64,000 nucleotides of DNA from a virus. The stretch is taken from positions 32,001-96,000 of IMG/VR virus record IMGVR_UViG_3300017792_000017. One strand, given 5' to 3'. The position numbers and the translations under genes were made by a program. The notes under the pieces were generated by a model. That model searched no databases, was not told the origin of the DNA, and saw only the letters and a list, made by a program, of their open reading frames with translations. Within the stretch, counting starts at the first letter, position 1. The number at the start of each line of letters is the position of its first letter. Shown in pieces: positions 31,677 through 44,252 of the stretch.

Positions 31677-32099
31677 ATGGCTGCAACCGTAACCAAGACT
31701 ATCGTTACCATCGCTTCGACCGACACCGAGTATCAAATTCCGGGTGATTACACACCGGCTTCGATCCAACGCAACTACGCTAACGATATTCCTAATATCG
31801 GCAGCATGCAATTCGAAGAGCGTGTCGTTACGCAAGACGGTGAAACGGTTCGTGAAATCACCTTCAAGCCCCGCACGGGTACGAAGGGCGCTGGTGTAAC
31901 GAAGACTATCGTGACCATCGCTTCGACGGACACGGAGTACCAGATTCCGGGTGACTACACCCCGGCATCGATTCAACGCAATTATGCGAACGACATCCCG
32001 AACATCGGTTCGATGCAGTTCGAAGAGCGTGTTGTGACGCAAGACGGCGAGACCGTCCGTGAGATCACCTTCAAGCCGCGCACCGGCACGAAGGGCTAA
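31677..32099 (+). CDS. Tandem (di-) ubiquitin-like protein, Prok-Ub/PRTRC protein C-like
   Basis: Two identical 67-aa units each ending FKPRTGTKG; AAGGA RBS; upstream of E2, JAB and E1 genes. Confidence 0.8.
   Translation: MAATVTKTIVTIASTDTEYQIPGDYTPASIQRNYANDIPNIGSMQFEERVVTQDGETVREITFKPRTGTKGAGVTKTIVTIASTDTEYQIPGDYTPASIQRNYANDIPNIGSMQFEERVVTQDGETVREITFKPRTGTKG
31689..32096 (+). repeat. 201-bp imperfect tandem repeat (31689-31889 and 31896-32096)
   Basis: 67/67 amino acids identical; 30 codons differ synonymously by my count. Confidence 0.95.
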
Positions 32100-42286: not shown

Positions 42287-42343
42287 GTAGGAGAACAAGG
42301 CCCACAAAGCCTTGTTTTTTAGCATCAACAAAAACAGATCTTT

Positions 42344-42352
42344 TGGTATAAG
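42344..42352 (+). promoter_or_regulatory. TGGTATAAG promoter motif of the RT cassette
   Basis: Motif copy following the terminator at 42293-42320. Confidence 0.7.
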
Positions 42353-42357
42353 CATCT

Positions 42358-42434
42358 TACAGGGCACTACCCTACTCCGGAAGCAGCGACCAATCTTTTT
42401 AGTCAAGCCTACAGACTAATCAGGAGAGATCGCT
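42358..42434 (+). ncRNA. Structured 5' leader (candidate msr-like segment)
   Basis: ctccggaagcag IR arm at 42375-42386, then a hairpin (agcga/tcgct, ttagtc/gactaa). Confidence 0.45.
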
Positions 42435-42563
42435 ATGGGTAAATTCCTAAAGAAGCTCGTCATGGTTGTCCGAGTTGTCAAGATCGTCCTTCGTATCGTT
42501 AATAGCGTTATGGACGTTCTCGATGACTTCGCAACTAAGCTGAGCGATAAAGAAGCGTATTAA
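42435..42563 (+). CDS. 42-aa amphipathic peptide
   Basis: AGGAG RBS; MGKFLKKLVMVVRVVKIVLRIVNSVMDVLDDFATKLSDKEAY. Confidence 0.55.
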   Translation: MGKFLKKLVMVVRVVKIVLRIVNSVMDVLDDFATKLSDKEAY

Positions 42564-42628
42564 CCTTCCCGCTTAGCTCTTTTAGAAACCGTAGGTAGAA
42601 ACTACCTACATTAATTTCGGATGCAACA

Positions 42629-43120
42629 ATGGATATTTCGTCCACTAGTTCGAAGAACGTTCCAAAGATGTCATCGCCTGCCCTAGAGATTAAGAACAAC
42701 TATTATCTCGTTAAAACAGGGCTGCTGTATAACTACTATCCTATCAAGGTCAAGCCGTTCACTGACGGCGATAGTATTATGCGGTTTGAAAAGGCACCGC
42801 CGGTCTTAATGGAAGGTATCGTGATCATAAACAAAAAGCCGTATCACGTAACCGTCCAAGATCTTATGCGTCAGGTAATTCGGAAATCAAGAGAAGTTGC
42901 AGTAGCTAAAAGAGAACAAGCAAATGGAAATTCAGGAACAACTAGTATTAAGGCCCTACGTCAAGCCGTTCAGCATCCAGTCGAACAAGGATCTGTCAGA
43001 GAAGCTTCGGTGGAAATCATCGAAGATGCTAACGCTGCTTGGGAAGAACAAATCGGAGCACTACTCGATTCTTTCTCTGCGAAAGAGGGGGCCGATTACG
43101 AAATACAGAATCCTGCATAA
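42629..43120 (+). CDS. Hypothetical protein overlapping the RT 5' end
   Basis: 163-aa ORF; 197-nt out-of-frame overlap with RT. Confidence 0.45.
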   Translation: MDISSTSSKNVPKMSSPALEIKNNYYLVKTGLLYNYYPIKVKPFTDGDSIMRFEKAPPVLMEGIVIINKKPYHVTVQDLMRQVIRKSREVAVAKREQANGNSGTTSIKALRQAVQHPVEQGSVREASVEIIEDANAAWEEQIGALLDSFSAKEGADYEIQNPA

Positions 43121-43943
43121 TCCAGACAGCTTGATGCGTGTTGTCCAGTATAAGATCCTAACCCAAATACTGGATAAAATTGAGGTACCGGAATACATCC
43201 ATGCTTTTGAGAAGGGCAGGAGTATTCCTAAAATGGCCGAAAGCCATGTGGGTAAGGACATGGTCGTGAGTATCGACCTAGAGGATTTTTTCACTTCTAT
43301 CAAGCAATACCAGCTTTTCGATTTGTTCCAGCATCTTGGCTTCGGTCAAGCACCGGCTAGAACATTGTCAGAACTTTGTACTTATGAGTCATTCGTCCCA
43401 CAAGGAGCCTTGACCAGTCCAAAGATCAGTAACATCATTACTGCACTGACATTCGGTCCTGCTATCAAAGAGTTCTGTGATGAAAACAATCTGACACTCA
43501 GCATCTATGCTGACGACATCACGATCTCGATGGATGCAGAAACGCGAGAGAAGTTAGGGAAAGGTATTGTTGGAAAGATCCTTCGCAAAGTATCAACTGA
43601 AGTTGGGCGTTACCGATTCAGGGTAAATAAGTCCAAGACTAAAGTGATGCGCCATTTCCAACGGCAGTATGTATGCGGAGCCGTTGTGAACGTCAAGGTC
43701 AATCTGCAAAAATCTGAGCGTAACAAACTCAGGGCTATGGTTTACAACTGCAACAAGAACGGAATTGAGGCGGAGGCCGCCAAAGCCGGAATCAGTGCAG
43801 AGTTGTTTTACAGTAAACTCATGGGGCGGTTGAACTGGTTCGGCCAGCTGAATCCCACAGCTGGTGCTCGTTTAAAGTCAAAGCTAAAAGAAGTCGATAT
43901 GGGCAAGCAATCAAGTGATCCTATCGCCATTGAGAAAGCGTAA
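42924..43943 (+). CDS. Retron-type reverse transcriptase
   Basis: R.LHNP, HAFEKGRS, MAESH (region X-like), IDLEDFF, PQGALTSP, YADD, VCG (region Y VTG-like). Confidence 0.9.
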   Translation: MEIQEQLVLRPYVKPFSIQSNKDLSEKLRWKSSKMLTLLGKNKSEHYSILSLRKRGPITKYRILHNPDSLMRVVQYKILTQILDKIEVPEYIHAFEKGRSIPKMAESHVGKDMVVSIDLEDFFTSIKQYQLFDLFQHLGFGQAPARTLSELCTYESFVPQGALTSPKISNIITALTFGPAIKEFCDENNLTLSIYADDITISMDAETREKLGKGIVGKILRKVSTEVGRYRFRVNKSKTKVMRHFQRQYVCGAVVNVKVNLQKSERNKLRAMVYNCNKNGIEAEAAKAGISAELFYSKLMGRLNWFGQLNPTAGARLKSKLKEVDMGKQSSDPIAIEKA

Positions 43944-43977
43944 AAGTATTTATGTCGCTAGACTCAGCAACACCGTA

Positions 43978-44209
43978 AAGTAATCGTATCCGCCATTACG
44001 AAAGCTTTGCCAGTTTTTTCTGACTAGTTCTTCTGGGTAAAAGAACTGTAGTCTGCTTCCGGAGCTTGGCCTGTACTACCGCAGTAAGAAGTTATTCTTA
44101 ACCGTAGTATAAACAGGGAGAGTTGAAATGGACCGCATAAATCCACATCTCGGTGCAGTAGATGGACTCGTACACTGCAATGAAACGAACGTAGTACCCA
44201 TGATTACTT
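43978..44209 (+). ncRNA. Structured RNA downstream of RT (candidate msd / msr-msd)
   Basis: Closing stem aagtaatcgt/atgattactt; hairpins at 44022-44053, about 44070-44117 and about 44154-44179; IR arm at 44053-44064. Confidence 0.5.
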
Positions 44210-44225
44210 CTTAGGAACCAAATAG

Positions 44226-44252
44226 AAAGCCGGGGTTGAACCCGGCTTTTTT
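44226..44252. terminator. Bidirectional terminator
   Basis: aaagccggg/cccggcttt. Confidence 0.8.

Follow-up and report, generated by a model that had tools for sequence, protein, structure and literature searches.

Where does a retron-type reverse transcriptase (RT) find its primer and template when the inverted repeat that should close its non-coding RNA lies on either side of the RT gene itself? This question is raised by a 64,000-nt stretch of IMG/VR virus record IMGVR_UViG_3300017792_000017 (record positions 32,001 to 96,000), which is called the window here and whose own numbering is used throughout. It holds an operon for a small peptide (SP), a conserved protein from a second open reading frame (ORF2) and a retron-clade RT. 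An earlier note, made by a model from the letters of this DNA, had pointed out the repeat and proposed a split retron, with the msr and msd portions of the RNA on opposite sides of the coding sequence. Analysis of related loci indicates that the repeat forms a conserved, covarying RNA helix around the entire coding region, and that this helix could plausibly serve as the priming junction of such a retron.

A long-range helix around the coding region

The sequence confirms the two perfectly complementary 12-nt arms, CTCCGGAAGCAG just after the promoter and CTGCTTCCGGAG downstream of the RT gene, as well as the position of the 3' arm 110 nt past the RT stop codon (43941-43943). Both arms fall inside one + strand transcription unit, which starts with the promoter at 42342, ends with the terminator at 44251 and gives an RNA of ~1.9 kb. 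Taken alone, the repeat is only mildly unusual (p ~0.07 in wide search windows, 0.003 when limited to the 5' and 3' untranslated regions (UTRs), with non-cognate pairs of related loci as the null). Gapless stem scoring was used instead of RNAduplex, which on wide windows pairs everything. We accept the repeat as real because it is conserved, with covariation, in relatives.

These relatives were drawn from IMG/VR, JGI, ENA and Logan. In >20 related phage loci with RT identities of 52-93%, a stem stands at the same two places and ranks first or close to first among the possible pairings of the 5'UTR with the 3'UTR. Counted from the start of the -10 motif, its 5' arm begins after 25-50 nt; its 3' arm is found 484-546 nt beyond the YADD codons, ~110 nt downstream of the RT stop or of the conserved motif in which that stop lies. 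The arms come in ~15 different sequences (Table 1); among the differences are double compensatory changes, single-base bulges and G:U pairs. When the 5'UTRs and 3'UTRs of 15 loci are aligned and concatenated, unconstrained RNAalifold recovers the helix, and several of its positions show two to four pair types; 94.6% of the helix cells are canonical, against a maximum of 90.1% in 1000 row permutations and 33-45% in slid registers. Single-sequence minimum free energy folds of complete ~1.9-kb transcripts contain the helix in seven of nine cases, spanning ~1.65 kb. Covariation of the arms in homologues was one of the checks proposed in the earlier note, and the pairing proves to be conserved, to covary and to enclose the whole coding region. 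That this long-range RNA helix is real and under selection is, in our view, highly probable.

The note had also suggested that tacagg and cctgta could extend the pairing. This stands in part, as a weak helix of 4-5 bp, CAGG(C)/(G)CCUG, which is CCGGC/GCCG in locus L008; its cells are 77% canonical, compared with a permuted maximum of 80%. Such an extension would tie the extreme 5' end of the RNA to 44070-73.

A retron-clade RT essentially confined to phages

The sequence places the RT squarely in the retron clade. It is matched by PADLOC retron RT models over their full length (up to 8e-67), its best PDB match is the Ec86 retron RT (4e-30, residues 23-290), and it has an intact YADD, MAESH at the NAxxH position and YVCGAVVN, with VCG at the VTG position. 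It scores under the NCBIfam cutoffs for the named retron families and therefore represents a separate retron-clade lineage. Mestre et al. (2020; PMC7736814) describe a retron as an RT with region X (NAxxH, the H most conserved) and region Y (VTG, the G most conserved) and with an intact YADD, accompanied by a contiguous msr-msd that is closed by a1/a2 repeats and has a conserved branching G at the 3' end of a1, the product being 2'-5' branched multicopy single-stranded DNA (msDNA). The operon's RT agrees with this description. Its RNA departs from it: the repeat (42375-44064) closes the whole operon, and no local msr-msd was found. An Rfam search returned no match.

At E <= 1e-10 the RT is matched by 415 proteins, and many of these lie on contigs 50-190 kb long. 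Among 185,579 bacterial and archaeal species, each scanned through one genome, there was one close relative (51% identity, on a 2.9-kb contig of a metagenome-assembled genome), all remaining cellular matches being partial and at <=39% identity; the RT lineage is therefore essentially confined to phages. The RT of a Staphylococcus phage (30% identity) was considered as an equivalent and rejected, its layout being different and lacking an enclosing repeat. The window itself belongs to a 144,968-bp genome, recovered as a single contig, that also encodes a large terminase, virion proteins and a tail-sheath-like protein (a weak match, E 7e-4). Its source is an uncultured large tailed phage. A phage database gave no DNA match.

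The helix junction and the adjoining hairpin

CAG terminates the arm in 19 loci, of which the column alignment contains 15; in these, down to ~62% RT identity, the junction end of the helix, CAG/CUG, is invariant while the remainder varies. The A-G-C context in which G42386 stands is invariant over the same range; the L009/L131 clade (65-66%) keeps A-G and has U in place of C, and in L006 a G directly follows the 5' arm. G42386 can pair either with C44053 or with C42433 inside a local stem, AGCGA/UCGCU, and C44053 can in turn pair with G44022. Given these alternatives, the three helices can meet in a compact three-way junction centred on G42386. The earlier note had G42386 unpaired in an A-G-C-G-A context; the A-G-C part of this context is conserved as described, and the base, which can also pair locally with C42433, is not obviously free.

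The AGCGA/UCGCU stem lies within a 5'UTR of ~75 nt and ends 1 nt before the SP start codon, enclosing a hairpin (42399-42419) and the Shine-Dalgarno sequence GGAGAG. By eye, this hairpin has the compensatory variants UUAGUC/GACUAA and AGCCCC/GGGGUU, its alignment register varying between loci.

On the other side of the junction, the hairpin that was said to abut the 3' arm and to compete for C44053 (44022-44053) holds up well in relatives. Its inner stem is 95% canonical with UA/CG exchanges, the outer pair G44022-C44053 can form in 10 of 15 loci, and of the eight clades examined only L100/L101 lacks a hairpin 2-6 nt 5' of the 3' arm. Its loop word UGGGUAAA recurs at the start of the SP gene as A-UGGGUAAA, within the start region AUGGGUAAA. 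Of 13 near-subclade loci, 10 have this 8-nt direct repeat without a mismatch; L124 and L128 have C for U in the loop, and a DNA copy could still pair with the SP start via G:U. Other loop words (UCUGAACA, CUGAUGA) recur in the L113/L035 clade just past the AUG of a likely 40-aa SP. We take the direct repeat as a lead and not as a result.

Priming junction or regulatory helix

That the helix is the priming junction of a split retron is a plausible reading, which we hold with middling confidence. The helix (12 bp plus the 4-5 bp extension) would act as a retron a1/a2 stem enclosing SP, ORF2 and RT. The first ~30 nt of the RNA pair with the segment ~110 nt past the RT stop, which would set G42386, at the 3' end of the 5' arm, beside the hairpin at 44022-44053. 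The RT would prime from this G and reverse-transcribe the hairpin, possibly together with further 3'UTR sequence, to give a short DNA that remains joined as a branch to its own mRNA. The other product suggested in the earlier note, a cDNA of the whole operon, may or may not be made. The AGCGA/UCGCU stem would place the SP start codon next to G42386 and, the loop word UGGGUAAA being repeated at the SP start, the DNA copy would be antisense to that start and could control SP translation. What recommends the split retron of the earlier note is the retron-clade RT, the conserved covarying helix around the coding region and the abutting, template-like hairpin; it fits poorly with the lack of a G after the arm in distant clades, and it leaves unexplained a conserved, structured RNA of ~190 nt that lies 3' of the arm. 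A more elaborate version is offered tentatively, as an 'inside-out' retron: the full operon mRNA would be the msr, the RT would prime on the G 49 nt upstream of the SP start and copy the 3'UTR hairpin, and the branched DNA would act in cis on the SP start codon, as antisense or as a guide for RNase H. If true, the phage would carry a self-contained, reverse-transcription-driven switch for a membrane-active peptide.

Several observations weigh against the split retron. L011, L100/101 and the L113 group have no G after the 5' arm, though they keep the stem, and no unambiguous equivalent of the stem emerged from a search of 30 loci that are more divergent (37-61% RT identity). Because it can pair with C44053 or C42433, G42386 is not obviously free. 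The candidate template hairpin is short (~11 bp) compared with typical msd stems, and, with msr and msd lying apart, what would halt the RT is not obvious. The direct repeat is not found in L006 or L011 and fails in L009/L131 (the match in L009 lies elsewhere); since it is invariant in the near subclade, it could also reflect coding or translation-initiation constraints. Priming, the DNA product, control of the SP and a role of the SP as effector are predicted features of the model.

A serious rival is a helix that is purely regulatory or architectural. It would close the mRNA as IR1-IR2 does in type VI retrons, setting the translation of SP, ORF2 and RT or assembling the RT-RNA complex, and the RT would have its template and primer elsewhere (e.g., in the ~190-nt 3' RNA) or act on another substrate. 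Type VI retrons indeed have a covarying inverted repeat that flanks the SP gene while their msr-msd is local. The conserved pseudoknot and hairpins 3' of the arm, unaccounted for by the split model, fall more easily into such a scheme, as does the loss of the priming G in distant clades. A second long-range helix, masking the region just upstream of the RT AUG, likewise suggests translational control as a theme. However, the 5'UTR is too short for an msr-msd, a local stem that could close the 3' RNA (43978-87 / 44200-09) is not conserved, and the invariant CAG/CUG end with its abutting hairpin fits a priming junction. On balance we consider this rival possible yet somewhat unlikely.

Two further explanations would take the repeat away from the RT altogether. 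The helix might be an RNase III-type processing site or a stem protecting the mRNA ends, like the stems that flank rRNA precursors; stacked together on a hairpin, a helix of 12-13 bp and its extension of 4-5 bp come close to two helical turns, and the 5' end of the RNA would be buried in the helix. This is improbable, as the other six transcription units in the window that begin with the promoter motif TTTGGTATAA are without an equivalent stem inside the transcript (one scored 33 vs 32, but its 3' arm falls past the 44251 terminator), a retron RT accompanies the helix in every case, and the junction end of the helix is invariant in sequence whereas RNase III needs no such sequence. Alternatively, the repeat could act at the DNA level, as the terminal inverted repeats of a mobile cassette or an invertible segment. 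Cassette-flanking repeats can co-vary when one protein binds both ends, but here promoter and terminator both lie outside the repeat, sequence conservation extends past both arms, and the unit is without a recombinase. The downstream neighbourhood and orientation are moreover the same in the seven loci with genes called downstream of the RT, and bulges and G:U pairs are tolerated. We give a DNA-level role hardly any credence.

Other features of the operon

The order SP (40-44 aa), ORF2 (162-185 aa) and RT is the same at every locus with called genes or inspected ORFs. Of eight contigs retrieved by protein identity, six have an ORF of 40-42 aa and one of 162-182 aa called ahead of the RT; in the other two, either ORF2 only (L130) or neither (L131) was called. 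A helical ORF of 40-52 aa directly follows the 5'UTR in all clades examined. Searches with ORF2 gave no family, PDB relative, detectable helix-turn-helix (HTH) or protein-atlas lead, and its predicted structure no usable fold (pLDDT, the predicted local distance difference test, of 41). The RT gene shares its first 197 nt (42924-43120) with the end of ORF2, the two being read in different frames. Relatives down to 65% RT identity (L006) conserve both protein sequences, and this is therefore a true dual-coding stretch. Gene callers start the RT at Met71, which sidesteps the overlap and thereby loses conserved RT sequence.

Between SP and ORF2 lies a terminator-like hairpin for which relatives have the compensatory variants GCAGGUAG/CUACCUGC and GUGGGUAG/CUACCCAC; its role may be that of an attenuator, holding back read-through into ORF2 and RT. 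The second long-range helix ends 18 nt upstream of the RT AUG and is identical in 11 of 13 near-subclade loci. For L124 and L008 the search gave a different stem, and L009/L131 have a differing, partly compensated pair, UUAGCA/UGCUAA, at that position. This helix could couple translation of the RT to that of ORF2.

The promoter motif occurs seven times in the window, all on the + strand (30856, 31594, 36157, 41476, 42342, 46477 and 48322), where 0.2 occurrences are expected. These sites precede accessory genes, the structural genes being on the - strand, and the motif probably acts as this phage's promoter for one temporal class. For the operon we infer a transcription start near 42358-42361. 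Contigs L003, L004, L005, L008, L012 and L126-L131 end 150-1300 nt upstream of the RT operon, which points to a hard-to-assemble repeat region there.

In the 3'UTR, the variable hairpin near 43984-44001 has a varying alignment register, which limits column-wise covariation. In L006 (3929-4071), the RT ORF runs 99 nt further and reads CGUAAAAG..GCCGCUAGAC as codons, in another frame. As the CGUAAAAG motif is kept there, it is conserved as nucleic acid, whether translated or not. Past the 3' arm, GGGAGAG and an AUG (44116-44130) open a 28-codon ORF that runs through the pseudoknot; its translation is doubtful because the AUG is ACG in L128. Both pseudoknot stems (44146-44179) show compensatory exchanges, and a GAACUCGA-like loop is conserved. 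The stem tried as a local closure of the 3' RNA was rejected, at 55% canonical cells and 1-8 of 10 pairs in relatives.

Table 1. Positions of the operon's features in the window, followed by the 5' arm sequences of the window and its relatives.
Feature	Position	Strand	Remarks
Promoter motif TTTGGTATAA, extended -10	42342-42351	+	kept upstream of the 5' arm in relatives
Extension helix, 5' strand CAGG	42360-42363	+	pairs with 44070-44073; variants CAGGC/GCCUG, CCGGC/GCCG
5' arm (a1-like) CTCCGGAAGCAG	42375-42386	+	ends in CAG; G42386 is the candidate priming G
5'UTR stem AGCGA/UCGCU	42385-89 / 42430-34	+	91% canonical, almost invariant
Small peptide SP, 42 aa	42435-42563	+	cationic amphipathic or hydrophobic helix, from the translation
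Second long-range helix CUCUUUUAG/CUAAAAGAG	42577-42585 / 42906-42914		
Terminator-like hairpin GUAGGUAG-AAA-CUACCUAC	42591-42609	+	between SP and ORF2
ORF2, 163 aa	42629-43120	+	conserved, 45-66% identity across 9 loci
Retron-clade RT, 339 aa, YADD	42924-43943	+	RVT_1 1e-23; retron models
3'UTR, part 1	43938-44021	+	conserved block CGUAAAAG..AUGUCGYUAGAC, variable hairpin near 43984-44001, CAGUUUUUU tract
Hairpin abutting the 3' arm	44022-44053	+	candidate msd-like template; loop CUGGGUAA at 44033-44040
3' arm (a2-like) CTGCTTCCGGAG	44053-44064	+	perfect reverse complement of CTCCGGAAGCAG
Extension helix, 3' strand CCUG	44070-44073	+	
Variable-length hairpin UACUAC...GUAGUA	44074-44115	+	shorter in L003, L124, L126
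Shine-Dalgarno-like GGGAGAG and AUG (44128), then H-type pseudoknot	44116-44214	+	
Pseudoknot stem S1	44146-50 / 44160-64		91% canonical vs permuted maximum 85%
Pseudoknot stem S2	44154-59 / 44174-79		94% canonical vs permuted maximum 88%
Intrinsic terminator	44224-44251	+	readable on both strands
5' arm, window and L001: CTCCGGAAGCAG			
5' arm, L007: CTCGuGGAAGCAG			one bulge
5' arm, L003-5 and L126: (C)TCGAAGAAGCAG			
5' arm, L124: CTTGGAGAAGCAG			
5' arm, L125: CTCGGAGAAACAG			
5' arm, L127: CTCGGaGAAGCAG			one bulge
5' arm, L128: CTCAuGGAAGCAG			one bulge
5' arm, L008 and L129: CTCGTAAAGCAG			
5' arm, L130: ACTCATAGGGCAG			two G:U pairs
5' arm, L009: TCGTGAAACAG			
5' arm, L131: CCACCATGAAACAG			
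5' arm, L006: ATCGTCACTGC			
5' arm, L011: CCTTGATGGGGTCA			
5' arm, L100/101: TTGTTTATGTACCT			
5' arm, L113/116/035/112: TGAGAAGCCCA			

Comparison with known systems

To our knowledge, characterised retrons all keep primer and template in one short contiguous RNA beside the RT gene, and all described systems are bacterial. The phage family differs on both counts, with hundreds of RTs essentially confined to phages and with the RNA halves at opposite ends of the RT-encoding mRNA. Literature searches turned up neither a phage retron nor a retron with the RT inside its repeat. Should the RT prime at the junction, retron priming would tolerate a 1.7-kb insert, which is relevant to editors that need long or coding inserts; an mRNA could bear covalently branched DNA; and phages would be using retron chemistry for their own ends. 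If the helix is merely regulatory, it would still extend the 'hybrid RNA' principle of type VI retrons to a whole operon.

In several features the locus resembles Ec86/Eco1 (type II-A), namely the RT clade, an a1/a2 inverted repeat of 12-13 bp and a hairpin immediately 5' of the 3' arm. Ec86 has a G at the 3' end of its 5' arm in an A-G-C-G-A context, and G42386 stands in the same context at the same place. Unlike in Ec86/Eco1, msr and msd would be separated by three ORFs, one of them the RT, the 3' arm is followed by a further ~190 nt of structured RNA, the operon has no known effector family, and msDNA is only predicted. More distant analogies are with group II introns, where the RT ORF is looped out of domain IV, in that an RT gene would be enclosed by its presumed RNA partner, and with DRT2, where a stem closes the template loop, in that a stem would juxtapose the template's two ends. 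Unlike these, the locus has no ribozyme domains, and its RT falls outside the group II and UG2 clades (34 and 23 bits vs cutoffs of 300 and 390).

Type VI retrons, with their hybrid RNA, provide the nearest precedent. In Retron-Vpa2 ('hybrid RNA') and Retron-Sen3 (IR1-IR2), a contiguous msr-msd lies upstream of a peptide gene and the repeat closes ~470 nt, comprising the non-coding RNA and the peptide gene; the msDNA is proposed to control translation of the small toxic peptide (bioRxiv 10.1101/2025.10.22.683967; 10.64898/2026.04.27.721009). For Vpa2, 7-nt direct repeats are proposed to let the msDNA open the SP translation start (2025-26 type VI preprints). The phage operon shares the order of small hydrophobic peptide, middle protein and RT, a covarying long-range inverted repeat round coding sequence, and a short direct repeat that joins the loop of the putative template hairpin to the region of the peptide's translation start; by analogy, RT-made DNA may control translation of the peptide here as well. 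It differs in that its repeat closes ~1.7 kb including the RT gene, after a much shorter 5'UTR, and in that ORF2 takes the place of an HTH middle protein. Type VI retrons are bacterial defence systems, whereas these loci are on phage contigs, and the RT scores 224 bits on other PADLOC retron models versus 188 on RT_VI. The element thus resembles a type VI retron in several aspects of its presumed working, yet it does not belong to that type.

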